A stretch of DNA of 64,000 bases. Source: an uncultured Acidimicrobiales bacterium. Its GTDB lineage: Bacteria > Actinomycetota > Acidimicrobiia > Acidimicrobiales > VFJN01. Each line of letters opens with the position of its first letter. Within the stretch, counting starts at the first letter, position 1. The stretch is from the NCBI GenBank assembly GCA_963739835.1, contig CAVUBW010000016.1:30285-94284 (forward strand), read 5' to 3'. The position numbers and the translations under genes are program-made. Under the pieces are notes generated by a model, which was given only the letters and a program-made list of their open reading frames with translations, ran no database searches and was not told where the DNA came from. Below, piece by piece: positions 16,017 to 40,536 of this stretch.

Positions 16017-16033
16017 CCATCCCACCCGGATGA
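16017..16033. promoter_or_regulatory. TCATCC-N5-GGATGA palindrome
   Basis: CCATCC-CACCC-GGATGA, about 79 bp before the SHOCT ATG. Confidence 0.65.
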
Positions 16034-16111
16034 CGACGCGGGGCGAGCGCTGGACGATCCTCGCCAATGGCCTGCGATGCATCGGCGCATCGTGGGTTGG
16101 AGGATCGTCAC

Positions 16112-16342
16112 ATGGGACTGATGTTCCGTCGTCGTCGACCGCTTGCTCGGCTCGCGGTCGCGGCCGCCTTGTACGCAAGGATCGAGGGTTTGCCGGGCCG
16201 GCTGCCGCGGTACGTGGCGCCGCCTCCGGCCTCGACCGGGGGCGAGGTCGACGAGCTGAGCCGCCTCGTCCAGATGCGCGACTCGGGCGACCTGAGCGAT
16301 CCGGAGTTCGCCGCCGCCAAGTCCCAACTCCTGGGCACCTAG
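16112..16342 (+). CDS. SHOCT domain protein with Arg-rich N-terminus
   Basis: DELSRLVQMRDSGDLSDPEFAAAKSQLLG; GGAGG RBS. Confidence 0.8.
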   Translation: MGLMFRRRRPLARLAVAAALYARIEGLPGRLPRYVAPPPASTGGEVDELSRLVQMRDSGDLSDPEFAAAKSQLLGT

Positions 16343-16365
16343 AAGCCCAGCACGACGAGACGAGC

Positions 16366-16794
16366 ATGACCACAACCGCTTCCACCCGGGCGAGCGCGAT
16401 GCGGCGCCTCATCCGGGCGGCCGTCACGGGCGACGGCGACTCCATGGTCGATCTGGTGACCGCCGACGTCACGAGCTGGTCGCCAAACCTGTTCACGACG
16501 TCCCGCAGCGAGCTCCTGGCGGCGCTCGACGCCCGGGACGATGCCTTCACCGGCGTCACGGTCGAGGTGCGCGCCCTCGACCAGATCGGCGACAAGGCGA
16601 TCGTCGAGTGGCATGTGGCCGCCGACCACACAGGCCCGCTTGTCGTCGACGATGACCTGCGCATCGAGCCGACCGGCCAGCGGCTTCACCTCTGCGGTAC
16701 GACCGTCGCGGAGTTCGACGGCGACCGGGTGTGTGCCTTTCGTAGCTACTTCGACGACCTCGCGCTGGTCGAACAGGCCCTGGCCCTCAGGTGA
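16366..16794 (+). CDS. SnoaL/NTF2-like (ester cyclase fold) protein
   Basis: VEWHVAADHTGPL, TTVAEFDGDRVCAFRSYFDD. Confidence 0.85.
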   Translation: MTTTASTRASAMRRLIRAAVTGDGDSMVDLVTADVTSWSPNLFTTSRSELLAALDARDDAFTGVTVEVRALDQIGDKAIVEWHVAADHTGPLVVDDDLRIEPTGQRLHLCGTTVAEFDGDRVCAFRSYFDDLALVEQALALR

Positions 16795-16853
16795 GCCGGG
16801 CACGCGGCGGCGGACGGGCAATCCGGCCCCGAGCGGCGGCCGCCGGGGCCCGC

Positions 16854-16870
16854 TCATCCGGATCGGATGA
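16854..16870. promoter_or_regulatory. TCATCC-N5-GGATGA palindrome
   Basis: Perfect TCATCC-GGATC-GGATGA, about 92 bp before ATG 16962. Confidence 0.7.
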
Positions 16871-16961
16871 GGACAGCTGCCACAGGTCACGGGATCATCC
16901 GCGGTCGGAGCAACGTGACAGGAGCGTCGATGACGGCGAACGAGTGGCTGGGGCGTCCGAC

Positions 16962-17409
16962 ATGATCTGGGCGATCCTGGCGCTGCTCGGGGTTCCACTG
17001 TGGTTCTGCGCGATCGCCATCGGGACGGTCGTGTTCCGGAACCGCCGGCTGCGCAGGCGTCCCGGCAGCGTGCCCGTCAGGGTGCTGGTACCGGGGAAGA
17101 CGAGGTGGTCCGCGGGCCATGGCGTCTGGGTGTCCGACGTCTTCGCCTGGCGCGGGAGCCCGGCGGCCTGGCGCGAGGACCTCGTCCAGGTCGGCGACGC
17201 ATCGGCACGGGTTCCCGAGGCCGAGGTGGAGAAGCGGCTTCACCGCATCGGCGACCATCCCGTCGTCGCCACCTTCGTCCTCGCCGACGGGGGGACCCTC
17301 GACGGTGGCCAGCGGGGTCGAGCACAGGGCCGAGCTCCTCGGTCCCTTCGCCGGCGCCTCGAGCGCCGACGGAGCGGCGGACTTCCGGGCAGCCTCCTCG
17401 GGCTCCTGA
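16962..17409 (+). CDS. Membrane-anchored hypothetical protein, DUF2550-like (frameshifted)
   Basis: MIWAILALLGVPLWFCAIAI...RRRPG...WSAGHGVWVSDVFAWRG. Confidence 0.6.
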
Positions 17410-17415
17410 GATCGC

Positions 17416-18405
17416 TCAGTCGTCGATCTCCTCCCAGACCGCCTGCTCGTCGTGCTCCTCCCAGTCGGCGCCTGGCAGCGCGATGGCCCAGCTCGTCCAT
17501 GTCCCGACCGGCCGAGCCGGGGTGGTCCTGACTCTGGCGCGGACGACCATGCCGGGCGTGAGCTCCACGGGCGAGCGCAGCGGGGCCGTCGTCATCCCCC
17601 AGTGCGTCGGTGGATCGCCGGGTCCCACGGAGAGCGAGATGCCGGGCGCGAGCTCGGCGCTGAACCAGAGTGCGAGCGCGTTGGCCGTTCCGTGGTCGCG
17701 GACGGGCAGCAGCGTCTCGGCTTCGTGAGGCGCCTGCGCCTGCTCGAGCGGGATCAGGTCCGCGTCCGTCGTCCACAACCGACTCGGCTCGGAGCGCCTG
17801 TCACCCGCCGCAAGGTGACGGAAGGTGCCGGAATAGAGGATCTCGTTGACGGTCTTCTCGACCAGGTCATCGAGCCTGAGGCCGTACGGGTTGTCCCGCA
17901 GGAAACTCCACCATGTCCGCGAGGTAGCGGTCGTGCACCAGCGCGGCCCACGCCGTGACCGAGCGGGGGATCATGACGCCGCCCGGCTTGAGCCAGCGGT
18001 CACGGGCGGCGATGACCGGAACGAGCATCCCTTCGTCGATCCCGAACCCTCCGAGCCACTCCGAGACGATCACGTCGACACGTTCCGGCGGCTCGATGTC
18101 CAGGACGTCGCCGTGGATCACCTGGACGATCTCCGTCGACCCCGTTCGCGGCGGCCAGTTCCTGCGCCAGGACGGCGATCGACGTCTGCTCCACCGCGTA
18201 GACGCGCGCAGCACCCGCCCGCGCCGCGAACACGCTCAGGATGCCGCTTCCCGCCCCGACGTCGAGAACGATGTCGCCGGGGCGCACGACCGCGTCGATC
18301 GCAGCGCCGGAACGCCTCGGTGCGGACGCGGTCGCGGATCATCGTCCGGTGTACCTCGAACTCCGCGTACATCGGGTCCGGCGGGTGCTTGATCGGCGTC
18401 CGCAC
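17416..18405 (-). CDS. Protein arginine N-methyltransferase (PRMT)-like SAM methyltransferase (frameshifted)
   Basis: [60 protein letters not shown] rebuilt over several frames. Confidence 0.85.
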
Positions 18406-18440: not shown

Positions 18441-18457
18441 CCATCCGTTCGGGATGA
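18441..18457. promoter_or_regulatory. TCATCC-N5-GGATGA palindrome
   Basis: CCATCC-GTTCG-GGATGA between the divergent PRMT and SHOCT genes. Confidence 0.65.
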
Positions 18458-18533: not shown

Positions 18534-18794
18534 ATGGGATTCAGGCGACGGACACGACGCCGGGCGCTCGTCGCCGGAGCGGCGGTTGCTCACCACCGGG
18601 ACAGGATGTACGCCGAGGAGCAGCAGCAGGCCGACGACCAGGCGCCTGCCGACGACTACCAGGACCAGGCGCAATATGCGCCGCCTCCGGCGGACCCGGC
18701 CGACCAGATCGAACACCTCGCACAGTTGCACGCCTCGGGCGCGCTGACAGACGAGGAGTTCGCGGCGGCCAAGGCGAAGGCCCTCGGGTCGTGA
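18534..18794 (+). CDS. SHOCT domain protein with Arg-rich N-terminus
   Basis: MGFRRRTRRRALVAGAAV...DQIEHLAQLHASGALTDEEFAAAKAKALG. Confidence 0.88.
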   Translation: MGFRRRTRRRALVAGAAVAHHRDRMYAEEQQQADDQAPADDYQDQAQYAPPPADPADQIEHLAQLHASGALTDEEFAAAKAKALGS

Positions 18795-19266: not shown

Positions 19267-19719
19267 GTGGAGTTCCACGTCGAGGACCATCCGGATCCGC
19301 TCGACATCGAGGTCCTCGAAACGCAGATCCGTCGTGAGGCGTCCGCCGCCATGGGACTCGGTGACGAAGTCGACCTGGCGATCTTCGTGCGCGACGCCGG
19401 CAGGGTCGTCGCCGGTATCAGCGGATGGACCTGGGGCGACTGCTGCGAGCTGCAGAACCTCTGGGTGGAGCCAGGTCTCCGAGGTCGCGGCCTCGCGACT
19501 CGGCTCATCGCCGCCGCCGAGGCCGAGGCGGCGGCCCGCGGGTGCTCACAGACCGTCCACTTCACCTACGACTTTCAGGCTCGAGCTCTCTACGAGCGGA
19601 ACGGCTACGAACTGGTGGGTCGAGTCGAGGACTTCCCATCAGGAACGGACGTCCTCTGGTACCGCAAGCGCCTTCGAGCCACCGGAGCTCCCGCCGACGC
19701 GAGGTGCGACCGGTCGTAG
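19267..19719 (+). CDS. GNAT family N-acetyltransferase
   Basis: LWVEPGLRGRGLATRLI, FQARALYERNGY. Confidence 0.9.
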   Translation: MEFHVEDHPDPLDIEVLETQIRREASAAMGLGDEVDLAIFVRDAGRVVAGISGWTWGDCCELQNLWVEPGLRGRGLATRLIAAAEAEAAARGCSQTVHFTYDFQARALYERNGYELVGRVEDFPSGTDVLWYRKRLRATGAPADARCDRS

Positions 19720-19986
19720 CCCGTCGCGGCGGCCTCCAAATCCGGCGCGCCTCGTCCCGAGCGGATGATCTGGACAACGACCCGCGGTAGGACCGCCCGC
19801 TGAATGGGAGCGGATCATTCCGTGCGCGAGGTGCCTCGCGGCGGCGCGCTCGACCAGCACCGGTACGAAGGTCTCGACCCGGGCTCGATCGAATCGGCCG
19901 AGCTCCTCCTCGATGACCTGGTCGACGAGCGCGGCGCCAACCAGGTCATCGAAGCGACGATGGAGCCTGTTGCTCACGCGGTGCAT
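19639..19986 (-). CDS. Small three-helix-bundle protein (DUF3562-like); ends uncertain
   Basis: RLHRRF...VDQVIEEELGRFDRARVETFVPVLVERAA. Confidence 0.5.
   Translation of the reverse strand: MHRVSNRLHRRFDDLVGAALVDQVIEEELGRFDRARVETFVPVLVERAAARHLAHGMIRSHSAGGPTAGRCPDHPLGTRRAGFGGRRDGLRPVAPRVGGSSGGSKALAVPEDVRS
19752..19768. promoter_or_regulatory. TCATCC-N5-GGATGA palindrome
   Basis: TCGTCC-CGAGC-GGATGA. Confidence 0.5.
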
Positions 19987-20090: not shown

Positions 20091-20549
20091 TCAGGCCTCA
20101 CGCATTTCGCGTCCATGGGCCATCAGGGCCCAGATCACGAGGACGTCGATGGTGATCACGGTCAGTGCCCAGAATGGGTAGACCGGGATGAAGGCGAAGT
20201 TGACCAGCATGCTGACGCCGGCGACGAGGACGCCAACCATCCGAGCGAGAAACCTGCCGCTGAACACCCCGAAGCCGGCGAGCACGATGATGGTGCCCAG
20301 GATGATGTGCACCCAGCCCCACTGCGACACGTCGAGGTAGACGTTCGCACGGTTGGCGAAGACGACCCATTCGTCGTTGACGGCGGCGACGATGCCGTAG
20401 AAGAGATTGAGGCTCCCGCCGATGATCAACATCACGCCCGCGAAGGCGATCCAGCCGGTCCAGCCGGTCGGTTCGTCGTAGGACGACGCCGGCAACGGCT
20501 CGTCTCTGCCGGCACTTCCCGTCTGCCCGCCTATGTCTGTGGTTGCCAT
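20091..20549 (-). CDS. DUF7144-type four-TM membrane protein
   Basis: GWIAFAGVMLIIGG...WGWVHIILG...ARMVGV...PVYPFWALTVITIDVLVIWAL. Confidence 0.8.
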   Translation of the reverse strand: MATTDIGGQTGSAGRDEPLPASSYDEPTGWTGWIAFAGVMLIIGGSLNLFYGIVAAVNDEWVVFANRANVYLDVSQWGWVHIILGTIIVLAGFGVFSGRFLARMVGVLVAGVSMLVNFAFIPVYPFWALTVITIDVLVIWALMAHGREMREA

Positions 20550-20647
20550 TTGCAAGTCCCCTCTTTCGGCTCCCGGGGCCCGATGATCGCCGGGTTCCAG
20601 GAGGAATCGGATCGTGCTGACCGTAGAAAGGGTCGGCAGGCACGTCG

Positions 20648-20704
20648 TCAGCCGGACAGGATGAGATCGACGAACAAGTCGTGGATCTCATCCCCCCGGG
20701 CTGA
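20648..20704. promoter_or_regulatory. Two TCATCC-N5-GGATGA palindromes
   Basis: TCAGCC-GGACA-GGATGA (20648-20664) and TCATCC-CCCCG-GGCTGA (20688-20704). Confidence 0.6.
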
Positions 20705-20951: not shown

Positions 20952-20968
20952 TCATCCGTTGGGGATGA
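20952..20968. promoter_or_regulatory. TCATCC-N5-GGATGA palindrome
   Basis: Perfect TCATCC-GTTGG-GGATGA, about 79 bp before ATG 21047. Confidence 0.7.
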
Positions 20969-21295: not shown

Positions 21296-21500
21296 CCGTC
21301 CGGCCCGCAGCCGTGCCCGCCCCTCGTATCAGTCGATTGCTCTTCATTGACCGGGACCAGCGGCGCGGTCCCGGGGCGGCAGTTGACGTCACGTTTGCCC
21401 TGTCGTCACCTTCTCTTCAGCTCCGGTTCCTCCCGTCCTGTCCGTGCGGTCATTTGGGCTCCATACGATCACCCGAGTCGACCCCGTGGGGAGGACACAC

Positions 21501-21608: not shown

Positions 21609-21717
21609 ACAGGTCTGGCGCCGGCCGCGTCCTGGCTTTTCGGGCCGGCCGGCGGGACAATCGGATCTCCGCATCGAGATGCCGCCAGGCGCCGCGGAAT
21701 CGAGCAGGAGGTTCACC

Positions 21718-21944: not shown

Positions 21945-24900
21945 CTAGCAGTTCCGGCCGGTCGACGGCTGCGGGGGGTCCGTCCGCCCCGATGGCATCG
22001 TCGACAGGGCTCGCGGTAGGACGGCGGCGCCGGCGGTCGCGGCGATGGACGCCGTGGTGCTGATGGTCCACCCGATGGGTCCGAGGGGTCGGCAGCCGAA
22101 CACGTGGGACAGGCCCGGTGTCTGGACGATCCCGGCCAGGATTGCGGCGGAGCCGAGGCCCGCGGCCAGGACGACGGGATCCCGGCCGCCGACCAGGATG
22201 GTCTGACCGAGCTGGGTCCCGACGACGGCCGTCATCCCGACGGTGCTGGCGTGAGCACGCGTGCCGGTGGCCCGGGCGGCGAGCCACGCGCCGGTCGCGC
22301 CGGCCGTGGTCAGGGTGGCCCGCATGGCGATGTCGCGGGCGAACGTGCCCAGAGAGGCTTCTGGACCCTCGCTCACGAGCTGCTCGGGGGTCGGCCGTGC
22401 CGGCTGGCGGATCGCGATGGCGAGGGCCGGAGCGGTGTCGGTGAGCAGGTTGACCAGCAGCAGTTGTCGGGCGTTGAGCGGAGCCCGGCCTTGGATCGCC
22501 GAACCCGTGATCATGAAGCCGATCTCGCCGAGGTTCCCACCGACGAGGATGGCTGCCGCGTCCCGGGCCGACGTCCACAGGGCCCGGCCCTCGAGGAGGG
22601 CGTCGACGAGGGTCTCGACCCTGTCGTCCACGACCACGAGGTCGGCGGCGTCTCTGGCGGCTCCTGTGCTCTGCTCACCGAACGCGATCCCCACGTCGGC
22701 CAAGCGGATCGCCTGGGCATCGTTGGCCCCATCACCGGTCATCGCAACCACGCGACCGGCCTGCTGGAAGGCCCACACGATACGCACCTTGTGGACGGGC
22801 GTGACCCGGGCGAAGACGGCCACCCCGGGCATGGCGTCGGCCAGTTCCTCGTCGCTCATCGCGTCGAGGTCAGGTCCGGTCAGCATGCGCTTGCCGTTGA
22901 CCAGTCCCAGCTCCGCAGCGATGGTCGCCGCGGTGCTGGGGTGATCGCCGGTGACCATGACTACCTCGACCCCGGCCCGCTGCAGATCGTGCAGGGCGGC
23001 CGCCGCCTCGGGGCGCACCGGATCGCTGTAGGCCACGAACCCGACGAACGCCAGGCCGTCGACCCCGTCCTCGTCGAGGCTCGCGGCTCCGGGCACGTCG
23101 CGCTCGGCCACCGCCAGGACGCGGAGCCCCCGCATTGCCATGCCATGCGCGTGGTCCAACAGACGGCGCCGCCGGTGCCGGGTCAACCGGTCGTTCGCCG
23201 CGCCGTTCGGCCACGTCGAGCACCGGGCCAGGACGACCTCGGGTGCCCCCTTGACGGTCAGCTTCGCCGACCCACTTCCGTTCCCCAGAACCGCGTGGAA
23301 TGCCCGCCCCGCCTCGAACGGTAGCTCGGCCAGTTGCCGCCACTCGTCGGCACCGTCGCTCGCCGTGACCTCGGCCATGCCGGCGCCGTCGACCAGGGCG
23401 CGGTCCTCGGGGTGCACCAGGTCGTGGCGCGCCGCGCTCGGCGAGGCCCGGAGGCCGGCGGCCAGGATGCTCCGGGCCTCTGGAGCGACGTGCGGCGTGT
23501 CGACGGGCATGTCGGTGACCCCATCGGAGACGGTCACCAGCGCGATGCGCCCTTCTGTCAGTGTCCCCGTCTTGTCGACGCAGGCGACGTCGACGCGGCC
23601 CAGGGCCTCCACCGCGCGTCGAGAGCGCACCGACCGCGCCGCGCCCCGCCAACCGCCGGGCGGCGCTGAGCTGGGCAACCGTGGTCAACAGTGGCAGCCC
23701 TTCCGGCACGGCGGCAGCCGACAGGGCCACACCGGACTCGACGATCTCGGCCAGTGGGGCGCCACGGATGCCGGCGAGGCCCGCCAGCAGGCCGGCGCTG
23801 CCGACCGCGACGGGAGCGGACAGCCGGCCCAGCGTGTGCAGCCGCGCCTCGAGACCGCTCGGCGGGGGCTCCGCGCCCGGGAGGTGGGCCGTACGGCGAG
23901 CCTCGGTGTCCGGCCCGCTGGCCACGACCACGGCGGTCGCCTCCCCGGCCGCCACCGCGGAGCCCTCGAACAGCATCGAGGTCCGGTCCGCGACGGCGGC
24001 GGCGAAGGACGGCGCCGCGCTCTTGGGCACCGGGAGCGACTCCCCGGTCAAGCTCGACTCGTCGACCTCGAGAGACCGGGCGTCGACGATCCGGCAGTCC
24101 GCGGACACGGTCTCTCCCGCCCGCAGCCGGATCAGGTCACCGGCGACGAGGTGGCGGGCGTCGACCAGAGCCTCCTCCCCGCCCCGGAGCGCCAGCACGA
24201 CGTGACCTGCTCGGGCGTCGAGTCGCTCGATGGCTTGGTCCGCACGGTGTCGCTCGACCCCACCGATCAGGGCATTGAACAACACGACGCTGCCCACCAT
24301 GGCCGCGTCGACCGTGGAGCCGACTGCCGCGGCGAGGCCGGCTCCTGACGCGAGGATGGGCGTGAAGGGGTTGACCAACTCGGCCGCCACCGACCGGACG
24401 AGCAACAGGGGGCCGGGAACCGATCGGGCCTCCGCCCGCTGGCGACGCGCCGCTTCGTCGTGCGACAGCCCCCCGGGCGTGGTCCCCAGCCGCTCGACGA
24501 CGACCCGAGCGTCGAGCTCGTGCCACGGCACCGGCTCGGGCCAACTCGGCATCGGCCGCCCCGCCAGCTCGATCCCCGCTCGCGTGCCATTGGCCAGCGC
24601 CACGGCGGAGGCGGCGTTCACCGCGTTCATCGTCCGCCCGACCGCCCCGGACGGGCGTCCGAGGAGCCCGGCCACGGCACCGGTCGCCGCACCCAGCGTT
24701 GCCACCAGCGCGGTCTCGCGGGCCACGCGGCGCGCGATCGAGCAGGCCTGGATCAGCAGGTAGGCATGTGCCAGCTCACAATCTTCCGCGAGCACGTCGG
24801 CTCCCCATGGTGGCGGGCCCGACCCGGCACGCAATCCGAGCGCGACGTCGGCGGGCGGCAGCCCCGGTGAGCCCCCGGGGGCGACCAGGAAAACGACGGC

Positions 24901-26427
24901 ACCCTCGCGCTGCAGCGAACGGATGGCCCGCGGGAGGCGGGACCCGTTGCGCACCGTGCGCTCGCACCTGAGCCTCGAGGCCACACTGTCGTCGCGCCCG
25001 GCGATGACGATCTCGAGACCCGCGAGCCGGACTGCGGCGATCAGCTCCTGGGCACCGCCGCGCAGGCGGCGCCGGGTGCCGGTCAGCGCCACCAACGTGC
25101 GGTGACGGACCAGTCCGAGCACCAGCCCGTCCTTGGCCAGCCGCCGGGCCGCCCGCTTGCGGCCGGGCGGCGCCTCGACGCCGAGACGATCGATCGGCGC
25201 CAGCGTCCATCCGCCCTGCCGGAACACCGCGCCGCGTGCGCTACCAGCCAAGAGGCTGCGGGCCCGGCGCTCGGCCTCCCGGGCGTCGTCTGCGCCGTTG
25301 CCCTCCGCCGAGGCGATCATCACGACCTCGGACAGCTCGAGCTCGTCGGACACCAGCAGGTCCTCGTCGATGACCACGCAGTCCACCCGGTCGAGCCGCC
25401 GGAGGGCATCGGGATCGAGCGGGAGGAGGCCGCGTGAGGCGAGCAGACGGCCCACCTGGGCAGCGAACCCCTCGCGGCCAAAATGGGCTGCCTTCGGCAC
25501 CCCCGCCTGCAACATTGCTGCCGCCTGCGCGAGGCTCCGAGTCGTGACCAGCGTTGCTCCGGCCGCCCCGAGCGAGGCGAGCAACACCCGATCCGTGAAC
25601 TGCTCGATAGGCCCGTCGGCAATCGGGGCCTGGCGACCTGTGTCCGGTGCCGCCTTCGGATGGTTCGTGGGAGCCTCCCACAGCGTCGGTTCCCGTTGAC
25701 GCCAGAGGCTGCGCCGCGCGCTCATCTCCGCCATGAGCGCCGAGCGGTGCGCCAGATCAACAATGGGACCGAGCGGCGAACCGGAGACGCCCTGCATGAC
25801 CCCGTTGCCCAGCGCCAGGGCCAGCTCGGCCGGTCTCGTCCCGAGGCCGTGCTCGACGAGGCGCCGAAGCCTCGGCTGGTGCTCGAGGATCGAGAGCCCG
25901 GCGGCCGCATACCCGACGAACGGGATCGGTGGGAGCCGGGCGACCCTCTGGAACGTGGCGAGCCCCAGGCCAGTCGCCGATCCTCCGATCATTGCCCCGG
26001 TCCGCAGCAGCGGTTCGACGTCGGCCGGGTGGGGCGGTGCTCCGGAGCCGAGTGGCTCCTCACGGACGCCGAACTCCTCCTCCACCGACTCCACCGACTC
26101 GACCAGCTCATTCGGAGAGGCGGCCCGCTCGTCGAACGCCACGACCACACGTCCCAGGTCCCCGACGGCCTCGACCCACTGGACCGCATGGTGCGCGCCC
26201 AGCTTCGCCTCGAGGCGCTCGCCGTAGCGCTCGGCGTCCACGGGACCGACCCGCCGCACCTCGATGTGCGCGTGGCCACCGCTCGACCACACCCGCCGCG
26301 CGCGACGCCGACCCGGGTCGAACAGACGGCTCAGCGGATCGAGCAAGCCCACGGCCGCCTTTCCACCTTGTGCGTCATGACCCGGTGCGGTGACAGCAGA
26401 CGCCGGGTCGGGAGGGCGGGGGAGCAC
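21945..26427 (-). CDS. Large cation-translocating P-type ATPase, CtpH/CtpI-like (frameshift near 23630; start approximate)
   Basis: DESSLTGES, AVPEGLP, DKTGTLT, KGAPE, TGDHP, MTGDGAND; long N-terminal extension. Confidence 0.88.
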
Positions 26428-26617: not shown

Positions 26618-26876
26618 TCATCCGACCGGGATGATGCGGTCGACCCGGCGTGGTGCCGGTAGAACTCGAGGGCGCCATCGCGGTCGGGGCGGGTCATCAG
26701 CCCGGATGATCGCGGCGTCGGCGGGCGCCATGTCGGAGTCGATCATCCCGGTCGGATGAGGCGAGGCCGTAGTGGCGGGCCGACAGTCGTGGGCGAGCGC
26801 GCACAGTCCAACCGGGGCTCATGGCGGGCGCACGATCGCCGTCGTCGCCCGGGGTGTCCCCATCCCAGAGGGATGA
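26618..26876. promoter_or_regulatory. Cluster of four TCATCC-N5-GGATGA palindromes
   Basis: 26618-26634 (perfect), 26694-26709 (N4 spacer), 26743-26759 (perfect), 26860-26876 (CCATCC). Confidence 0.7.
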
Positions 26877-29480
26877 TCAGAGCAGGCCGAGGTGCGTCGC
26901 CTTCTCGACTGCTGCGGCCCGGCTATCCACGCCGAGCTTGCGGTAGGTGCTCTGCAGGTGGGTCTTGAGTGTGTTCAGGGACACGTAGAGCTCGGACGCG
27001 ATCTCGCGGTTGCTCAAGCGGGTGGGGAGGTAGCGGAGCACGGTGCGCTCGCGGTCGGTCAGGCCGACCTCGCCGGCGGACCCGGCTCGCTCGACCGGCA
27101 TGGGCCGGGTCGTCGCCTCGACGACGGCGTGCTCCAGCGCTCCGAGGGCCGGCTCCGGCGCATCCCCGCGCAGCCGGGCCTCGAGCGCCAGGGTGACGTC
27201 CATGCCGGCGTCGGTGATCGAGCGCGCGAAGCCCTGCGATCGTGACAGATCGAGGATCCTGTCGAGCTGTCGGTCGACGTGGATCGCGTCGTGCTCGAGC
27301 AGCCCGATCTGCGCCTCGACGAGGCAGCGCTCGAGTTGCGGTCTCGGCTCGACGCTGGATTCGAGCGTCTCCAGGCATGCCGCCGCGGCCTCGGGGTCGC
27401 CTCTGCGGGCGTGGTGCTCGGCCTCGGTGATCAGGCGACGGGGACCCGAGCCCAGCCGCGCCAGGTGGTCGGCGGTGACGTCAAGGCCCGCCGCAAGACG
27501 GATCCGTACCTCGAGCGCATCGCCACGTACGACGAGCGGGGACTCCACGTCCTGGCGAGAGAAGGCCCGCGCCCGGTCCAACCGGTGCAGCGCCTCGTCG
27601 AACTCGCCGCGTCGCAACGCGACCCGGGCCAGCTCCACCAAGCTCAACAACGCGAACGGCGGCCGGCCGGGTGCCGCGATGTCGAGCGCGCGCTCGAGGT
27701 GGCGTTCCGCGGTGGTCAGGTCACCGGCCTCGGCCTCGAGGGCGCCGAGCGTCCGCATCACGTCCGCCATGAGGAAGTGCCGCTCGGCCCCCAGCTGCGG
27801 CACCAACGCAGCCGCCCGCCCCGCGAGCTCGCCGGCGAGCCGGAGGTTGCCGCATTCGAGCTCGACCGCGCTGATCGCCCCAACGAGCGCGACCTGCTGC
27901 ATCAGTGGGTAGCGCGCCCACCGGTTGATCGCGTCGGAATAGACGGCCCGAGCGTCCTCCGGCCGGTCCAGGTAGTCGAACCCCCGGATGAGCGTGAGCG
28001 GGGCCATGTCCACGAAATCGTCCTCGCCGGGGGGCGACCGTCGCACGGCATCCTCGGCGTGTGCGAGGGCAGCACCGATCTCCCCGCGGAAGCCGAGCCA
28101 CATCGCTCTCGCCAGGGCCTGCCGCGCTACGTACCGGGGGCTGGGATCGGTGGGTCCGAGGGTGTCCAGGTAGGCGAGCCACCGCCCGGCCTCGTCGATC
28201 GAGCCAGCCATGATGAGGGCGATGGTGTAGTCGAGTACCTGGTCGCTGCGCGCCGAGAGCACCTCGCCGCCGAGCTCGGTGATCCACGAGCTGATCGCGG
28301 CACGGCCACCGAGGTACTTGTCGACGGCATGGTCGCGGACAAGGGCGAAGGCGCGGTCGGCGTCTGCTCCGTCGACGGCATGGCGTACCGCGCGTGCGAT
28401 GTCATCGTGCTGCTCGTACCAGTGCGAGGCCGCAACGTTCAGCACGTTGACCCGGTCGGGATCCCGCGCCGACAGCCAGCGCCGGAGGACGTCACGGAAC
28501 AGCTGGTGAAAGCGGTAGGTTCCCGCATCGGTGCCGACCCGGACCAGGAAGAGGTTGGCTGTCTCGAACGCCTCGAGCCTGTCTGCCGCGTCGTGTCGTC
28601 CGGTGAGGGCCCGGCATCGGTCGGCGTCGAACTCGTCGAGCGTGGCGAGGGCGAGCAGGCAGTCGAGGCTTTCTGCGTCGAGCTGAGCGAGCACCTCGCT
28701 GGCGAGGTAGTCGGTGATGTTGTGATCGGATCCGGCGAAGGCTCTTACGAAGGCGGACGGGTCGGGGTGGTCGCGCAGTGCGAGCGCCGCCAGGTGCACC
28801 CCTGCGGCCCAGCCTTCTGTTCGCGCCGTCAGCGCGTCCGCGTCTTCGGGGGTGAGCTCGATGCCGTGCGCGGCGACCACCCGCGCGGTGTCGTCGGCCG
28901 AGAAGCGCAGCTGGTCGGTTCGTAGCTCGCCGAGGATGCCGTTGGCTCGCCACCGGTGCAGTGGCAGCGGCGGGTCGGATCGGCTGCCCAGGACGAGTGC
29001 CACGCCAGGTGGGAGTCGCTCGACCAGGAGACCAAGCGGCGCGACGGCGTCGGCAGGGACCATGTGCAGGTCGTCGATCACCAGGGCGGCACCCCGGTCG
29101 AGCCGGGCAAGGTCGTTCACGAGCGACGGCACCACGTCATCGAGCGCGAGCGGGTCTTCGGCGAGTAGCGCCCGGGCTTCGTTCCCGATCCCGTCGCCCA
29201 GGTGCGCACAGGCGGCGACGATCGACATCCAGAACCGGGCGCTGTCGGCGTCGGTGACGTCGCATGTCAGCCAGGCCCACGATTCCTCCGGCCGGTGGTG
29301 GACCCAGTCGGTCAACAACACCGTCTTGCCCGCTCCGGCCAGCGCAGCGATCAACGTCACCGGGTGCTCGTCGACGAGCCGGTCGAGCAAGGCCACGGGG
29401 TGGTCGCGCGCCATGACCGTTCGCGGCGGTGTGGGCGGTGCGAACTTTGTGACCGCGAGCAGCGGAACTGCATCCGCCAT
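26877..29480 (-). CDS. MalT-like ATP-dependent LuxR regulator (STAND)
   Basis: TKFAPP, ALAGAGKT, LVIDDLH, TEGWAAG, RFHQLF, LTDRERTVLRYL...SLNTLKTHLQSTYRKLG. Confidence 0.92.
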   Translation of the reverse strand: MADAVPLLAVTKFAPPTPPRTVMARDHPVALLDRLVDEHPVTLIAALAGAGKTVLLTDWVHHRPEESWAWLTCDVTDADSARFWMSIVAACAHLGDGIGNEARALLAEDPLALDDVVPSLVNDLARLDRGAALVIDDLHMVPADAVAPLGLLVERLPPGVALVLGSRSDPPLPLHRWRANGILGELRTDQLRFSADDTARVVAAHGIELTPEDADALTARTEGWAAGVHLAALALRDHPDPSAFVRAFAGSDHNITDYLASEVLAQLDAESLDCLLALATLDEFDADRCRALTGRHDAADRLEAFETANLFLVRVGTDAGTYRFHQLFRDVLRRWLSARDPDRVNVLNVAASHWYEQHDDIARAVRHAVDGADADRAFALVRDHAVDKYLGGRAAISSWITELGGEVLSARSDQVLDYTIALIMAGSIDEAGRWLAYLDTLGPTDPSPRYVARQALARAMWLGFRGEIGAALAHAEDAVRRSPPGEDDFVDMAPLTLIRGFDYLDRPEDARAVYSDAINRWARYPLMQQVALVGAISAVELECGNLRLAGELAGRAAALVPQLGAERHFLMADVMRTLGALEAEAGDLTTAERHLERALDIAAPGRPPFALLSLVELARVALRRGEFDEALHRLDRARAFSRQDVESPLVVRGDALEVRIRLAAGLDVTADHLARLGSGPRRLITEAEHHARRGDPEAAAACLETLESSVEPRPQLERCLVEAQIGLLEHDAIHVDRQLDRILDLSRSQGFARSITDAGMDVTLALEARLRGDAPEPALGALEHAVVEATTRPMPVERAGSAGEVGLTDRERTVLRYLPTRLSNREIASELYVSLNTLKTHLQSTYRKLGVDSRAAAVEKATHLGLL

Positions 29481-29816: not shown

Positions 29817-29960
29817 TCCGTCGACGCGGCCCAGGCGGACAACCGAGGAGGGTGGGTGTGACGGTGAGCAGTTCTTTGTCGCATCGTGTGGCGGTTCGAA
29901 CCGCCGTCGAGCGATCACCACTCCACCGGCACGCGCCCGCACAACCACTGGAGCGCCCCG

Positions 29961-32497
29961 ATGCGCTCGCACGCGGAGCGCCCCCACCCGTGCCGCTCTT
30001 CGCGATCCGCCGGATGCGCCTCGAGGGACGCCTCGAGGATCACCCGGACCGGCACGTGCTCCTCGTGCGCGGTCCTGCTGGAGCGGGCAAGACGGTTCTC
30101 GTCTCGCAATGGGTGAGAACACGCACCCAGCCGTGCGCCTGGCTCGCGATCGACCCGACCCACAACGACGAGACCGTTCTGAAGCAACAGTTGGTCAGGG
30201 CGGTGGAGCGGCTCTCCCCGGAAGGCTCGGTCGTGGTCGGTCGATGGGCGGTCGCCGGCGACATCGACGGCACCGTGGTCACTGACGTCCTCAACTCGGT
30301 GACACAGCGCCTCGGAACGGGCATCACCGTCGTCGTCGACGACGTCCATCTCCTGCACGATCGAAGCGCGCGGCACGTTCTCGAGCTGCTGGTGGAGCAT
30401 CCGCCCGACCAGGTTCGGCTCGTGCTCGTGTCGCGATCGAAACCCCGGCTCCTGCTCGAACGCGCCCGACTGCGGGGTGACCTGGTGGAGATCACCCCTG
30501 CCGAGCTGCGGTTCGAGCGCGCCGAGATCGACGCGCTCGCCGCGACGTGGACCGGGCGGCAGCTCGATGCCGCCGACCTCGAGCAGGCGACGCTGGGCTG
30601 GGCCGCGGGGCTGCGGCTTGCGTACCTCGACGGCTCGAACAACGCCACACCGTCATCCGCCGGGCCCGATCTCGACGGCATCGCCACTGGGTACATCGGG
30701 GAGCTGATCGCTGCCTTACCCGCGACCACGCGCTCGTTTCTCCAGGTGACCTGCTGGCTGCCGGTCCTCACTGAGCAATTGTGTGCTGCGGTCGCCGCTG
30801 ATGAGCGCGGCCGTCCGTCATCCGCCCGGCCCGACATCGAGGCGCTCCCCGCCGTCCCGGTCACCAGCCGGCCCGGGGCGTTCCGTCATCCACCCATGCT
30901 GATCCGTGTCCTGCAGCGGGAGTGTCGGCGCGGTGACCCACGCGCCGCGCTGACCGCCCGCCGCCGCGCTGCCGAGGCCTGTCGAGACACCGGGGATCTC
31001 GTCACCGCCATCGAGCTGTTCCTGCAGGCCGCCTGCACGGACGAGGCGGCCGCGTCGTGCGCGGACCTGGCGGCCGTTGACGATTCAGCCTTGCGCCGGG
31101 TCGACGAGCTCTTGCTGCGGCTCCCCGAGATCACGCCTGTCAGCCCAGGGTGGTCGGCCTGGCGGATCCGCGCCGCCGTCGCGGCCGGGCGTGTCGACGA
31201 GGCGTGCCGCCTGCTGAAAATAGCAGACGCGGCCGCCAGGTCGGCCGGCCTGGCCGGCCAGGAGGACAGCCCGGATCTCGTCATGGCGCGGGCCGTGGTC
31301 GCGGAGCGCCTGGGCGATGTCACCGACCTGCTCGCCAGCGCCGATCATCTGCTGACGCCCGTCGTGCAGGCCGGAACCAGCCCGTGCGCGACCGTGCGAG
31401 CGCACGGCTGGCGAGTTCGCGCCCTGGTTTGGGCCGGTGAGGCGGAGCAGGCGAGGTCGGCACTGCGGGAGCTCGACCAGGCAGCCCTCGGAACCGAACT
31501 CGAGGCGGCGATCGACATCGCCCTGGCTCGTGCCTGGATCGCCTGGCAGGACGGTGACATCTCGGACGTCGCGGAGTCGGTCGCCTCCGTCGAGGGCGAC
31601 GGTCGTAACCGCGGCTCGGGCTCGGCCGAGCTTGCGCTGCTGGCAGGATTGGCCCACCGCGAGTGCAACCACCTGGCCAAGGCCGTGCAGCTCCTCGACG
31701 AGGCCCACTATCTCGCGGTCGTGCACTCTCACCACGTCCTCGCCGCGCTCGCCGCCAGCGAGCTTGCTCGCTGCCACCGGGCATCGGGCGCCGACATGGA
31801 GGCGCTGGAACTGGTGGTCTCCACCCGTGCCGCGCACCCTGAACTGCCACCGGCGATCGATCTTCACCTCCGCGCCACGGAGGTGAAGGTGCGCCTCGAC
31901 CAGGGCGATGTGGCCGGAGCCCGGGCCGCGGTCCGCGACGGACCACCGGGAGCCGACACGCAGCTGCTGGCCGCGCGGGTGGCGCTGCAGGAAGCCCCGA
32001 CGGAGGCCCGGGAGCTCGCGGAGTCGGTCGACCCGAGCGCACCCCGGCACGTCGTGGAGGCGCTCCTGTTGCGCGCCCAGCTGCCGGATGCCGGACCGGA
32101 GGACGAGTCGGCGGCCGTCATCGAGGCGATCTCGGTCGGCGGGCCCCTCGGCCTCGTGCGAACGTTCCTCGACGAGGGACCCGCGCTGAACCGGCGGCTC
32201 TCCGAGTTGGCGCTCGACCACACCGACCGGACCCTCGGCCGCCTGGCCGCCCTTGCGTGCCACGAGCTTGCCCTGGCATCGACGCGACGGGAGACCGGGC
32301 CGATCGAGCAGCTCACCGCCCGCGAGCTCACGGTGTTGCGCATGCTGCCGCTGCGCATGTCCAACCGCGAGATGGCCGCTCAGCTCTACATCTCCGTCAA
32401 CACCATCAAGACACACGTCCGAGCGATCTACCGCAAGCTCGACGTCCCCCACCGGTCCGCGGCGGTCCATCGGGCCACGGCATTGCAGCTCGTCTGA
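29961..32497 (+). CDS. Second MalT-like LuxR regulator (start uncertain)
   Basis: RGPAGAGKT, VVVDDVH, TLGWAAG, LTARELTVLRML...SVNTIKTHVRAIYRKLD. Confidence 0.88.
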
Positions 32498-32507: not shown

Positions 32508-32533
32508 TCATCCCGGTCGGATGAGGCGAGGCC
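32508..32533. promoter_or_regulatory. TCATCC-N5-GGATGA palindrome inside a 26-bp sequence identical to 26743-26768
   Basis: TCATCCCGGTCGGATGAGGCGAGGCC; palindrome ends about 90 bp before the arylsulfatase ATG. Confidence 0.7.
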
Positions 32534-32613: not shown

Positions 32614-35024
32614 ATGAGTGAGCACGATCGCAGCAGGCTCCCGATCCGGCGTGAGACCGTTCGCAGGAGTGGCCAACCGGACGCTCGACGGCTCGCAGCC
32701 GGACTGGAACCTGATCGGGCATCCGACCCCGCCCGACGGCGCGCCGAACGTGCTGCTGGTGCTCATCGACGACGCCGGGTTCGGCAACCCGAGCACCTTC
32801 GGCGGCCCGATCCAGACGCCGAACTACACGCGGATCGCCGAGGGCGGCCTGCGCTACAACCGGTTCCACGTCACCGCGCTGTGCTCGCCCACGCGGGCGG
32901 CGCTGCTGACCGGGCGGAACAACCACGCGGTCGGGTTCGGCTCGGTCGGCGAGTTCGCGGGCGGGTTCCCCGGCTACTCCGCGACCCTGCCGCGGGACTG
33001 CGCGCCGCTGCCTCGGATCCTGCGGGACAACGGCTACAGCACGGCGGCCTTCGGCAAGTGGCACCTGACGCCCGACGGCCAGCAGGGCCCGGCCGGGCCG
33101 TTCGACCGGTGGCCGAACGGGTGGGGCTTCGACTACTTCTACGGGTTCCTCGGCGGCGGCTCGAGCCAGTGGGACCCGTGCCTGGCCGAGAACCAGAAGA
33201 TCATCGGCACTCCCGAGGAGTTCTACGACGAGGAGGATCCGTACTACTTCCCCGACGCGATGGCCGACCGCACCATCGAGTGGCTGCACGGGGTCCGCGC
33301 ACAGGACGCCGACAAGCCGTTCTTCGTCTACTTCTCGACCGGCTGCAGCCACGCCCCGCACCACGTCGCGAAGGAGTGGGCGGACAAGTACAAGGGCAAG
33401 TTCGACCAGGGATGGGACCAGCTCCGCGAGGAGACCTTCGCCCGCCAGAAGGAGCTCGGGGTCATCCCGGCCGACGCCGAGCTGACCCCGCGCGACGAGG
33501 CGTTCCCGGCGTGGGACGACGTGCCCGACAAGCTGAAGCCGTTCTACGCCCGCCAGATGGAGGTCTACGCCGGGTTCTCGGAGAACGCCGACCACAACGT
33601 CGGTCGGGTGATCGACGCGATCGACGAGCTCGGCGAGCTCGACAACACGCTGATCCTCTGGATCTGGGGCGACAACGGCGCCAGCATGGAGGGGACGGTC
33701 ACCGGCTCGTTCAACGAGCTGACGATGCAGAACGGCATCCCGCTCACCGACGAGATGCAGCTCCAGCTCTCCGAGCGCTACGGCGGGCTCGACGCGTGGG
33801 GCGCCTCGATCATGGACCCGCACTACGGGGCGGCGTGGGCGTGGGCGGGGAACACGCCGTTCCAGTGGGGCAAGCAGGTCGGCTCGCACCTCGGCGGGAC
33901 GCGCAACCCGCTGGTCGTGCACTGGCCCGACCGCATCACCGACGCCGGCGGGCTGCGCTCGCCAGTTCACCCACGTCATCGACGTGGCGCCCACGATCCT
34001 CGACATCGCCGGGATCCCCGCGCCCGACACCGTCGACGGGATCGAGCAGGAGCCGATGCACGGGACCTCGTTCGCCGCGTCGCTGACCGACGGCGCCGCG
34101 CCCGAGCACCGCACGCAGCAGTACTTCGAGACCATCGGCAACCGCGCCATGTACAAGGACGGCTGGTGGCTCGCGATGAAGACCGAGCGCATCCCGTGGG
34201 TGCTCACCCCGGACGCGCTCAAGCCCTACGCGCCGGGCGTCTGGGATCCGGACGCCGGCCCGGCCGAGCTGTACTACCTGCCCGACGACTTCACCCAGGC
34301 GAACGACCTGGCGGCCGAGCACCCCGACAAGGTCAAGGAGCTCAAGGAGCTGTTCTGGGAGGAGGCCGAGCGGTACAAGGTGCTGCCGCTGCTCGCGACG
34401 CTGTCGACGTTCTTCGGCATGCTGCCGCCGATCCCGGAGCAGACGACGTTCGAGTTCCGCGGCGACGTGCAGAACGTGATGTCCGGCATGATCCCGAGGA
34501 TCTACAACCGCTCGTACGCGATCACCGCCGACCTGGTCGTTCCCGACGGCGGCGCCGAGGGCGTGATCGTCGCCGAGGCCGACCACCTCGGCGGGTTCAC
34601 CCTCTACGTCAAGGACGGCAAGCTCACCCACACCTACTCGATGATGGGCGTGTTCGTCTTCAAGCAGGTCGCCGAGGAGGACCTCCCGACCGGCGACGTG
34701 ACCGTCCGCATGGAGTTCGAGGCCGACGGGGCCACGCCGGCGACCGGCGGCGAGGTGACGCTGTTCATCGACGACCGACCGGTCGGCAAGGGGCGCATGG
34801 ACCACACCGTGCCGGTCCGGTTCTCCGGCTACGCGGGGATGGACATCGGCCGGGACAACGGTGGCGTCGTCGACCGCAGCTACGAGAGCGAGAAGCCGTT
34901 CGCGTTCACCGGCACGGTCAAGAAGGTGGTGTTCGACATCAAGCCGCACCTCTCGGACCAGGACGAGCTCGACCTCCACGCCGCCGCGCACCACGGGCAG
35001 GCGGCGCACGGCCTGTCGGCATGA
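32614..35024 (+). CDS. Arylsulfatase, Cys-type, AtsA-like (frameshifts near 32655 and 33960)
   Basis: PNVLLVLIDDAG, LCSPTRAALLTG, FGKWHL, HAPHH, GDNG. Confidence 0.92.
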
Positions 35025-38751: not shown

Positions 38752-38756
38752 CGCCT

Positions 38757-39755
38757 CTATGCACGTGCGGAGGCCCGCATGATGCAACGGAAGCCCAGAT
38801 GCGACGTCGACGTGTCGATCGTCTGGGGCATCCGAGCGGCCGGCCTGTAGCGCCGGCAGTAGTTCTCGGCACACAGGTGCGAGCCGCCCTTGATCACCCT
38901 GCGGGCCAGCTGCACGGGCTCGGCGGCGAGCTGCGGGTCGTAGCTGCCCTCGGCGTCACCGCCGTGCGGGTCGGTCACGGTGCAGCACGCATGTGCGCCG
39001 GCGGCATGGTCGCCGTACCAGTCGGCCGTCCATTCCCAGACGTTGCCGGTCATCTCGAACAGCCCGAAGCCGTTGGGTGGGAACGAACGGACGGGCGCCG
39101 TGTACTCGTGACCGTCGAGGCCGAGGTTCTCGACGGGGAACTCGCCCTGCCACGTGTTGGCCATGAACCGCCCGTCCGGTGTGAGCTCGTCGCCCCAGGC
39201 GAACTCCGCGCCCTCGAGACCGCCTCGCGCCGCCCGCTCCCATTCGGCCTCGGTCGGCAGCTCCTTGCCGGCCCAGCGAGCGTACGCGTCGACGTCCTCC
39301 CACGCGACATGGACAACCGGGTGCTGCCCACGGCCCTTGAGCGACGACTGGGGGCCGCGGGGGTGACGCCAATTGGCGCCAGGGACCCAGAACCACCAGT
39401 TGGTGTGGTCGCGCATGTCCACCGGGTGGCTGGGTCGACGGAAGACGCTTGAGCCAGCGACCATCAGGCTGGGCTCGGCGTCGCGGTAGCAGGCCGGGTC
39501 GGGCGCCCGTTCGGCCAGGGTGACGTGACCCGTGGCGTCGACGAAGCGGCGGAACTCGGCGTTCGTGACCGCGGTGCGGTCCATCCAGAAACCGTCGATC
39601 TCGACCCCGTGCGCGGGTGCTTCCTCCGGGTAGTGGTCGTCGGAGCCCATCACGAACGTGCCGCCCGGGACCCACACCATGCCGTCCGCAGGCGCCCGAC
39701 CGGGCGCGGGGTCCGCAGACCCGCCCGTGGCTGTTGTCCCGACCGACGTGTCCAT
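38757..39755 (-). CDS. Formylglycine-generating enzyme (sulfatase maturase)
   Basis: LPTEAEWE, NTWQG, GNVWEW, KGGSHLCAENYCRRYRPAAR, HLGFRC. Confidence 0.92.
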   Translation of the reverse strand: MDTSVGTTATGGSADPAPGRAPADGMVWVPGGTFVMGSDDHYPEEAPAHGVEIDGFWMDRTAVTNAEFRRFVDATGHVTLAERAPDPACYRDAEPSLMVAGSSVFRRPSHPVDMRDHTNWWFWVPGANWRHPRGPQSSLKGRGQHPVVHVAWEDVDAYARWAGKELPTEAEWERAARGGLEGAEFAWGDELTPDGRFMANTWQGEFPVENLGLDGHEYTAPVRSFPPNGFGLFEMTGNVWEWTADWYGDHAAGAHACCTVTDPHGGDAEGSYDPQLAAEPVQLARRVIKGGSHLCAENYCRRYRPAARMPQTIDTSTSHLGFRCIMRASARA

Positions 39756-39790
39756 CGGTCGTCAGCTTCCCGACCCTGCCGGCGGTGTCC

Positions 39791-39807
39791 TCATTCGAAC
39801 GGGATGA
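39791..39807. promoter_or_regulatory. TCATCC-N5-GGATGA palindrome
   Basis: TCATTC-GAACG-GGATGA upstream of FGE. Confidence 0.6.
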
Positions 39808-39808
39808 T

Positions 39809-39970
39809 TCAGCGGCGAACCTGGCGACGGTCGCGACGGTCATCGCGGCGATCATGGCGGCGATTCACGCCGTGCGACACGACGGCGGCGGTGCCGACCA
39901 CCGCTGCCGTCCTCGCCACCGGGGCACCGATGACACCGCGCCGTGCAGCTCGAGCCGGTCGGAGGGGCAT
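39809..39970 (-). CDS. 53-aa Arg/Asp-rich peptide (below ORF-track cutoff)
   Basis: MPLRPARAARRGVIGAPVARTAAVVGTAAVVSHGVNRRHDRRDDRRDRRQVRR; AAGGAG RBS; starts 1 nt after the DUF6325 stop. Confidence 0.7.
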   Translation of the reverse strand: MPLRPARAARRGVIGAPVARTAAVVGTAAVVSHGVNRRHDRRDDRRDRRQVRR

Positions 39971-39971
39971 G

Positions 39972-40433
39972 TCAGTCTCCTTCGCTAGCGGCGTTCTCGG
40001 CCTCGATGGAGGCGGCGATCGCCTGGATGGGGATCCTGCCGGTGGCGATCAGCTGGCCGCCGGCCCGGCGGGTTGCCGACGCGAACGGGGCGGCCCAGGA
40101 GTTCTCCCAGACCAGGACGCCGGCGGTGCTGCCGTTCTCCATCGCCTCCGCAAGATGAACGACGTCCTCGGCGGCGAGGATCTCAGCGATCTCGGTCTCC
40201 AGGCCGATCAGCGCGCCCGCCTCGTCCTCGTCGAGGTCGTCGATCTCGAACGCCTCGACGGTGCCGTCCTCGGCCTTGTTCAGGATCAGCAGGTCGAGCA
40301 CACGAATCGTGCCGGACTCGGTCAGTGAAGCGAGCTCGGCGGCCATCTCGCCCGAGAAGTTGCTCTTGCCGGCAGGAAATTCCACGACGAGGTAGTCAAC
40401 CGGACCCAGTTCGTCGATCTCCGTCGCACCCAT
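39972..40433 (-). CDS. DUF6325 family protein
   Basis: LGPVDYLVVEFP, GTIRVLDL, VLVWENSWAAPF, GRIP. Confidence 0.88.
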   Translation of the reverse strand: MGATEIDELGPVDYLVVEFPAGKSNFSGEMAAELASLTESGTIRVLDLLILNKAEDGTVEAFEIDDLDEDEAGALIGLETEIAEILAAEDVVHLAEAMENGSTAGVLVWENSWAAPFASATRRAGGQLIATGRIPIQAIAASIEAENAASEGD

Positions 40434-40519
40434 AGGAAACTCCTATCTCGCGGTAGTGCCCGGTCGAGGTCGCACAGCCGGACAGTGATGCACTCTCCCG
40501 CTGGGTAGGACGTCTGTCG

Positions 40520-40536
40520 TCATCCGTTCCGGATGA
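40520..40536. promoter_or_regulatory. TCATCC-N5-GGATGA palindrome
   Basis: Perfect TCATCC-GTTCC-GGATGA, about 87 bp upstream of DUF6325. Confidence 0.7.

Follow-up and report, generated by a model that had tools for sequence, protein, structure and literature searches.

A predicted MalT-like LAL regulon outlined by the palindrome TCATCC-N5-GGATGA in an uncultured Acidimicrobiales bacterium

What does a palindrome signify when it recurs between the genes of one small part of a bacterial genome and is scarce in the rest? The question is raised by a 64,000-nucleotide stretch of DNA from an uncultured Acidimicrobiales bacterium (contig CAVUBW010000016.1 of assembly GCA_963739835.1, forward-strand positions 30,285 to 94,284; hereafter the window, in whose own coordinates positions are given below), in which copies of TCATCC-N5-GGATGA punctuate a gene island at 16017-40536 around two genes for MalT-like regulators of the STAND/LuxR (LAL) type, which we term LAL1 and LAL2. 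A first-pass annotation of the bare sequence had read the palindrome as the putative operator of this regulator pair. That reading now draws support from an identical published motif, from a matching promoter geometry and from co-occurrence with the regulators, in that clusters of the motif lie beside LAL1 homologues in orthologous as well as unrelated loci. Hence, we propose, with a probability of roughly 0.85, that the palindromes are the operators of an activator encoded by the island itself.

The window holds six perfect copies (16854, 20952, 26618, 26743, 32508 and 40520), the number first reported and now obtained by a window-wide motif count; shuffled versions of the window contain 0.01 on average, and none of 100 shuffles reaches six. 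Another seven copies deviate at one position (16017, 18441, 19752, 20648, 20688, 26860 and 39791), bringing the palindromes at no more than one mismatch to 13 within 24.5 kb. When two mismatches are admitted, the window yields 14 matches against a shuffle mean of 2.45 and a largest shuffle value of eight; the additional one, at 30886 inside the LAL2 gene, is within chance expectation. The first-pass annotation had listed 14 copies, of which 13 are canonical; the remaining one, at 26694-26709, reads TCATCA-GCCC-GGATGA and is a variant with a 4-base spacer. Its statement that the motif is confined to the interval holds at up to two mismatches, no such palindrome lying in the window beyond 16017-40536. 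Single half-site hexamers are likewise enriched, with 37 of the 48 in the window falling in the island.

This confinement extends to the genome. The whole assembly (5,657,698 bases in 28 contigs) carries seven perfect and 12 one-mismatch copies; the island, 0.43% of its length, accounts for six of the former and seven of the latter, leaving one perfect and five one-mismatch copies for the rest of the 5.66 Mb. Such a concentration is not that of a dispersed repeat of the repetitive extragenic palindromic (REP) type, and the many copies scattered over the genome that would mark such an element, which the first-pass annotation had named as evidence against its reading, were not seen.

The sites are further tied to promoters by their spacing. 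We took the 13 sites at no more than one mismatch, excluding 26694 and 30886, and sought a hexamer of the form nAnnnT in both flanks of each. In 13 of the 26 flanks, representing 12 of the 13 sites, such a hexamer begins 22-24 nt past the motif, eight times at an offset of exactly 23; for 13 positions drawn at random from the island, 2000 times over, the average was 1.65 of 26 flanks and the maximum seven. A -10-like hexamer at this distance implies that the site overlaps the -35 region, and, with the hexamer placed at -12 to -7, transcription is predicted to start 34-35 nt past the motif. When the sites are oriented by promoter direction, the distal half is TCATCC in 11 of the 13; mismatches fall mostly in the promoter-proximal half, after which GGAC or GGCG often comes next.

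For most sites the predicted promoter direction points at genes. On the forward strand, the site at 16017..16033 (CCATCC-N5-GGATGA, one mismatch) is the predicted promoter element of the first SHOCT-SnoaL pair, with GATCCT at offset 23 and an ATG at 16112, preceded by GGAGGA, 79 nt from the motif end. The perfect sites at 16854..16870 (GATCAT, offset 23), 20952..20968 (CACTGT, offset 23) and 32508..32524 (GACAAT, offset 24) are predicted to serve, respectively, an open reading frame (ORF) for a 195-aa membrane protein, an 82-aa ORF at 21047-21295 with GAGGAGG before its ATG at 21047, and the sulfatase-DUF1269-SulP-DUF2252 series. Also facing forward, the one-mismatch site at 20688..20704 (TACGAT, offset 22) has just a 41-aa ORF downstream. 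On the reverse strand, predicted promoters lead from 20648..20664 (one mismatch; TACGGT, offset 23) to the DUF7144 gene, from the perfect site at 26618..26634 (CATAGT, offset 24) to a gene for a long P-type ATPase, and from the perfect site at 40520..40536 (GAGAGT, offset 23) to the DUF6325 gene, whose ATG at 40433 is preceded by GGAG. The one-mismatch site at 39791..39807 (GAAGCT, offset 22) faces the reverse-strand gene of a formylglycine-generating enzyme (FGE), whose ATG at 39755 is 36 nt from the motif; as this ATG falls at or beside the predicted start, the FGE mRNA is probably leaderless. Finally, the one-mismatch site at 18441..18457 is bidirectional, with AACGGT at offset 23 toward the second SHOCT operon on the forward strand and TAGGTT at offset 24 toward a PRMT-like gene on the reverse strand. 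The first-pass annotation had put seven sites 77-99 bp from a start codon; this is approximately right, the distances to plausible start codons being 74-99 nt for the sites at 16017, 16854, 18441, 20648, 20952, 32508 and 40520.

The sequences flanking most sites are unrelated to one another. As a separate observation, the segments 26743-26768 and 32508-32533 share 26 identical bases, the motif plus GGCGAGGCC, and the site at 26618, read on the opposite strand, nearly matches them. The near-identity of these three sites suggests that promoter segments may have been copied.

The two candidate regulators of such an operator are both large. LAL1 (26877..29414, reverse strand, 845 aa) matches the Pfam families TPR_MalT and GerE; LAL2 (29909..32497, forward strand, about 860 aa, its start uncertain between 29909 and 30014), encoded divergently from LAL1, matches AAA_16 and GerE. 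Each has the Walker A sequence GAGKT and the STAND-LuxR/LAL architecture, namely an N-terminal P-loop, homology to the nucleotide-binding oligomerization domain of MalT and a C-terminal GerE helix-turn-helix (HTH), in proteins whose length lies in the range of about 800-1000 aa that characterizes this class. The closest solved structure for both is the nucleotide-binding region of Escherichia coli MalT (8bob; E = 1.3e-22 for LAL1 and 1.2e-18 for LAL2). The top NCBIfam family is in both cases the MalT equivalog NF003420, at 230.2 bits for LAL1 and 168.5 bits for LAL2, short of the cut-off of 537. Judged by these scores, LAL1 and LAL2 are MalT-like proteins and not MalT equivalogs.

Literature searches on the motif or the region led to a single study, Droste et al. 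2020 (PMC7567727), and the works citing it. It describes a region of Actinoplanes SE50/110, the MRLGR, in which MEME found the motif 5'-TCATCC-5nt-GGATGA-3' upstream of 17 mapped transcription starts, with the 3' end of the motif 34.4 +/- 1.0 nt from the start. The spacing predicted from sequence in the present island matches this published distance. The MRLGR encodes two MalT-like LuxR genes, ACSP50_3915 and ACSP50_3917. Deletion of the former (malT) lowered the expression of 42 of 51 genes and its overexpression raised that of 39 of 51, and deletion of the latter had slight effects only, according to unpublished data cited in the same paper; the regulator nearer to MalT was the main activator in Actinoplanes (PMC7567727). 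The motif is likened there to the MalT box of E. coli, GGA(T/G)GA, which lies at about -35; partial motif-bearing regions are reported from four other Micromonosporaceae, and a PPK2 gene is noted in related regions of other species (PMC7567727).

The likeness between the two regions includes the identical operator in many copies in one region, the -35-overlapping position predicted here, the presence of two MalT-like LuxR genes inside the region, a common cargo of SHOCT, DUF1269 (two homologues in Table S4 of PMC7567727) and DUF2252 genes, and a gene order that is shuffled among relatives. What links the island's regulators to ACSP50_3915 is the likeness of both to E. coli MalT. The regions differ in size, with 51 genes in the MRLGR against about 20 genes in 24 kb here, and in host, that of the island lying outside Micromonosporales; amino-acid metabolism genes are absent from the island. 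Conversely, Table S4 and the portion of Table S3 considered do not name a sulfatase, FGE, SulP, long P-type ATPase, PRMT-like, SnoaL or GNAT protein. The terms 'SulP' and 'P-type' have zero occurrences in the spreadsheet of PMC7567727, and the two 'sulfatase' passages considered, out of four, lie outside the MRLGR. Given the same operator, predicted spacing, regulator pair and part of the cargo, the island appears to be a MalT-like (LAL) regulon of the MRLGR type in a different lineage. The operator and promoter design is already published, which the first-pass annotation did not know; the lineage and part of the cargo are different.

Related islands bear on the same point. A scan of species genomes with LAL1 recovered three close loci (L001-L003) at 81-90% identity. 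They come from metagenome-assembled genomes that bear the titles Kribbellaceae bacterium, uncultured bacterium and uncultured Acidimicrobiales bacterium; Micromonosporales includes neither of the taxa so named. In all three the regulator pair is kept and the cargo order shuffled, and 14 of their 16 sites at no more than one mismatch have the -10 geometry; the bidirectional pattern of the site at 18441 recurs at L001:8741, and the site at 32508 is conserved in L002, L003 and the same-genus genome G784. Among 20 genomes of the same family (including G781 and G782, flagged as unpublished), G784 alone has a full-length LAL1 orthologue, at 79% identity; G779 has a 162-residue piece at 75%, and the remaining same-genus genomes searched have just paralogues at no more than 37%. 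This restriction to few genomes marks the island as accessory. All six G784 sites show the -10 geometry, and they adjoin genes for FGE, DUF2252, DUF6325, the sulfatase, both regulators, SnoaL, DUF7144, SulP and the membrane protein.

At greater distances, at least one perfect copy is present in 67 of 401 same-class genomes and in 61 of 401 genomes of the phylum. Each tally comprises 400 others plus the window's assembly (G000), and they include genomes flagged as unpublished (G275, G254, G512, G417 and G766), on which, as on G781 and G782, nothing else in this analysis depends; a reversed control pattern gave zero or one per genome. The window's assembly is the richest in perfect copies, with seven, and the next-highest genomes have three or four. 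A LAL1 homologue is encoded no more than about 0.5 kb from a site in three of five genomes with clustered copies, namely G278 (where it is part of a divergent pair), G552 and G639. The -10 geometry is seen at 8 of 8, 2 of 2, 3 of 6 (in G639, over two loci), 4 of 4 and 3 of 3 sites in the five. Their cargo, assessed by Pfam on 45 of 59 candidate ORFs with those distant from sites left out, recurrently includes DUF2252 (G278, twice in G380, G639), SHOCT (G278, G380), DUF7144 (G552, G639), SulP (G380), GH15 (G278, G639), class II glutamine amidotransferase (G639) and DUF308 (G278). Table S4 of the Actinoplanes study likewise contains several of these families (PMC7567727).

As a working model, we suggest that LAL1 would bind the operators, with LAL2 perhaps assisting or acting redundantly. 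Each operator would lie across a promoter's -35 region, the -10 hexamer beginning about 23 nt past the motif, and the bound regulator, activated by ATP and an inducer, would, given this overlap, recruit RNA polymerase in a class II manner. About eleven units would thereby be switched on together: the two SHOCT-SnoaL units, the membrane ORF, the PRMT-like gene, DUF7144, the small ORF, the P-type ATPase, the sulfatase-DUF1269-SulP-DUF2252 series, FGE and DUF6325. We infer in this model the binding, the identity of the binder, the transcription starts, the inducer and the physiological role, and carry over activation by analogy from the Actinoplanes homologue.

Several observations weigh against the assignment of the palindromes to a LAL activator. 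The one-mismatch site at 19752..19768, which follows the GNAT gene, has no -10-like hexamer in either flank. Two others, the perfect site at 26743..26759 (GACAGT at offset 23 on the forward side) and the one-mismatch site at 26860..26876 (GATCGT at offset 23 on the reverse side), which abuts the LAL1 stop codon, have convergent predicted starts 31 nt apart and face no clear gene. Between the divergent LAL1 and LAL2 genes there is no canonical site, only a lone half-site at 29521, such that the control of the regulators themselves is left unexplained by the model. In G380 and G467, no LAL1 homologue (E <= 1e-20) lies near the clustered sites. Further, binding in Actinoplanes was deduced from transcriptomics and motif position, and not from a binding assay (PMC7567727). 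As an observation on G467 itself, its locus L010 (C1:2589589-2594239) has three perfect palindromes within 5 kb of a genome of 58% G+C, each followed by CAAGCT, and may represent a repeated element rather than a regulon.

If the palindrome is read by a LAL protein, the question becomes which of the two reads it. We favour LAL1 as the main binder, by a modest margin over even odds. That LAL2, or a mixed oligomer of both, reads the palindrome in place of LAL1 alone is a possibility we entertain tentatively: a BLASTP comparison of the two proteins aligns them significantly in the HTH alone, where 37 of 61 residues (61%) are identical, their recognition helices are nearly the same (SLNTLKTHL in LAL1 and SVNTIKTHV in LAL2), and the pair stays side by side in L001-L003, G784, G278 and Actinoplanes. 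LAL1, however, is nearer to E. coli MalT (230 versus 168 bits) and is the only one of the two with a TPR_MalT match. In Actinoplanes, too, it was the regulator nearer to MalT that acted as the main activator, with only slight effects for deletion of the other (PMC7567727).

A far smaller chance attaches to a reader outside the LAL pair, be it the LysR regulator encoded at 14204-15160, the GerE-type regulator at 9591-10325 or a protein encoded elsewhere. Further DNA-binding proteins are indeed encoded nearby, and LAL binding is itself a prediction, but the motif clusters in L001-L003, G784, G278, G552 and G639 keep the company of LAL genes and not of those regulators. The sole retrieved relative of the 9945-10311 stretch (L004) is without a site, and the half-site equals the core of the MalT box as given in PMC7567727.

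It is about as improbable, or marginally more so, that the motif is instead the -35 element of an alternative sigma factor, as might be proposed from its fixed distance to a -10-like hexamer and its overlap with the -35 position. Even sites with a -10 hexamer on just one flank have both palindrome halves conserved, and of the two halves the promoter-distal one is the better kept. A dimeric regulator would be expected to show this pattern, and a sigma factor would not. The Actinoplanes genetics also indicate MalT (PMC7567727). Least credible of all is a REP-like repeat or a leftover of duplicated DNA devoid of regulatory role, for although the 26 bases common to 26743 and 32508, the near-copy at 26618 and the duplicated SHOCT-SnoaL units recall such an origin, only one of the seven perfect copies lies outside the island, most flanks are unrelated and the sites persist through shuffled gene orders in other genomes.

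Returning to the LAL operators that we prefer, their relationship to the better-known systems is one of partial overlap. With E. coli MalT, the island's regulators share the combination of a STAND ATPase, a TPR-like sensor and a LuxR-type HTH, and the half-site GGATGA agrees with the core of the MalT box, GGA(T/G)GA, as cited in PMC7567727. The sites here differ in being inverted repeats with a 5-base spacer, and the island is devoid of maltose and maltodextrin genes. The LAL family of actinomycetes includes pathway-specific activators of antibiotic clusters. LAL1 and LAL2 resemble its members in their length of about 850 aa, N-terminal P-loop and C-terminal GerE HTH; in contrast to such activators, they adjoin no biosynthetic gene cluster under their control, the cargo being small membrane proteins, transporters and a sulfatase system.

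The genes of the island were called from frame plots, Pfam searches (57 of 138 ORFs of at least 80 aa, plus 35 further ORFs) and comparison with relatives. G+C is 0.66-0.72 within the island as against about 0.74 in its flanks, and no tRNA gene flanks it. Pfam recovers every family named in the first-pass annotation (SHOCT, SnoaL, PRMT, DUF7144, P-type ATPase, sulfatase, SulP, DUF2252, DUF6325 and FGE) and adds DUF1269, GNAT and a second SHOCT-SnoaL pair. On the forward strand, SHOCT1 (16112-16342) and SnoaL-like 1 (16399-16794) are followed by the 195-aa membrane ORF (16944..17531), which is conserved in L002 and G784, and by SHOCT2 (18534-18794), SnoaL-like 2 (frame-interrupted, to 19253) and GNAT (19267-19719); the two SHOCT-SnoaL units are duplicates. 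The reverse strand carries the PRMT-like methyltransferase (17416..18405, a Pfam match), the DUF7144 protein (20091..20555, E = 9e-37) and the P-type ATPase (21945..26427, about 1490 aa, of which about 700 form an N-terminal extension that no Pfam or NCBIfam model matches). Beyond the regulators, a Cys-type sulfatase with a CSPTR motif (32614..35024), DUF1269 (35167-35502), SulP-STAS (35600-37327) and DUF2252 (37324-38751) lie on the forward strand, and FGE (38757..39755, FGE-sulfatase family, E = 6.9e-84) and the DUF6325 protein (39972..40433, a Pfam match) on the reverse. Pfam and NCBIfam gave no family for the ORFs at 16944-17531, 21047-21295, 21444-21608 and 21679-21921 and nothing for the first approximately 640 residues of the P-type ATPase.

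The sulfatase with its CSPTR formylglycine motif and the FGE gene, 3.7 kb off under a site of its own, form a matched pair of enzyme and maturation factor. Together with SulP, this set points to a possible use of sulfate esters, and the many small membrane proteins point to a possible envelope or stress response. To the left of the first site, at 14204-15899, a LysR regulator diverges from a small ORF and a PNPOx-like gene in a stretch without the palindrome, which is probably a separate unit. Variation among relatives touches the membrane ORF: the 621-base stretch at 16794-17416 that contains it is missing from L001 and from a relative's metagenome contig (run X6), in which 36 other bases with a perfect palindrome take its place.

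The reading frames of the methyltransferase, the second SnoaL gene, the P-type ATPase and the sulfatase are interrupted by frame changes. Relative to L001, whose methyltransferase is intact (8792-9778, 328 aa), the gene here carries one additional base at each of the positions 17908, 18133 and 18306; compared with G784, L002 and L003, the sulfatase gene carries one at 32657 and another at 33964. Along with those at 18801, 18990 and about 23640, the last in the P-type ATPase, these indels are private to this assembly and are of a single base, once of four; the coding parts of LAL1 and LAL2 have no indel relative to L001. The assembly is 63% complete at 5.66 Mb, as against 95% at 5.7 Mb for G784. 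The interruptions are probably assembly errors, and a reading of several island genes as pseudogenes was mostly set aside in their favour, in view of the private indels and the completeness. Contigs from short reads have gaps across the methyltransferase stretch; they derive mostly from relatives and hence are uninformative on expression. One of them (run X1), with zero substitutions against the window, carries one extra G at 20574. No public RNA run is listed as containing the stretch, and the shares in DNA runs are at most 0.16.

If the assignment is right, a regulon reported from one industrial actinomycete and four relatives would extend to soil lineages that are uncultured and belong to a different order or class. 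The same operator-promoter design also accompanies LAL genes in several more families of this phylum. The resulting promoter model (operator, about 23 nt, -10 hexamer) is concrete and covers about eleven units. Tying DUF2252, DUF1269, DUF6325, DUF7144 and SHOCT proteins to one sensor would provide a handle on their roles, and, given knowledge of the inducer, the promoters and regulator could be turned into a tool for inducible expression in high-G+C bacteria.

The view of the first-pass annotation that the motif outlines a single regulon stands for the island itself, but a variant of the operator marks similar genes beside paralogous regulators elsewhere in the genome. The relaxed pattern TCAYCC-N5-GGRTGA has 18 matches in the assembly and its reversed control none; 12 of the 18 lie outside the island, most as TCACCC/GGGTGA, and eight of these 12 have the -10 geometry. 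The loci with TCACCC-N5-GGGTGA and hybrid forms (L011-L020) include C6:38567, C12:326855, C12:228236, C15:182182, C17:219096, C17:350035, C17:421618 and C24:632348. Pfam searches on 29 of 56 neighbouring ORFs found regulator paralogues (at C6:38567, C12:326855 and C17:219096), DUF6325, DUF7144, SHOCT/PLDc_N and PPK2; regulator paralogues are encoded in the assembly on contigs C24, C6, C19, C12, C5 and C28. Together with the recognition helices of the paralogues, these neighbourhoods suggest that operator variants may separate paralogous regulons within one genome. Speculatively, and with considerable doubt, the island could be one instance of a regulon module that is widespread in Actinomycetota and shuffled horizontally, with STAND/LuxR sensors activating DUF2252, SHOCT, DUF1269/DUF6325, DUF7144, PPK2, SulP and GH15 genes and with paralogues partitioned by a single base-pair change of the operator, TCATCC/GGATGA versus TCACCC/GGGTGA (C6, C12, C17). 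The recognition helices read SINTVKSHL in the C6 paralogue and SPNTLKFHL in the C12 paralogue, and the base-pair change may be matched by K-S-H or K-F-H in these helices as against K-T-H in those of LAL1 and LAL2.

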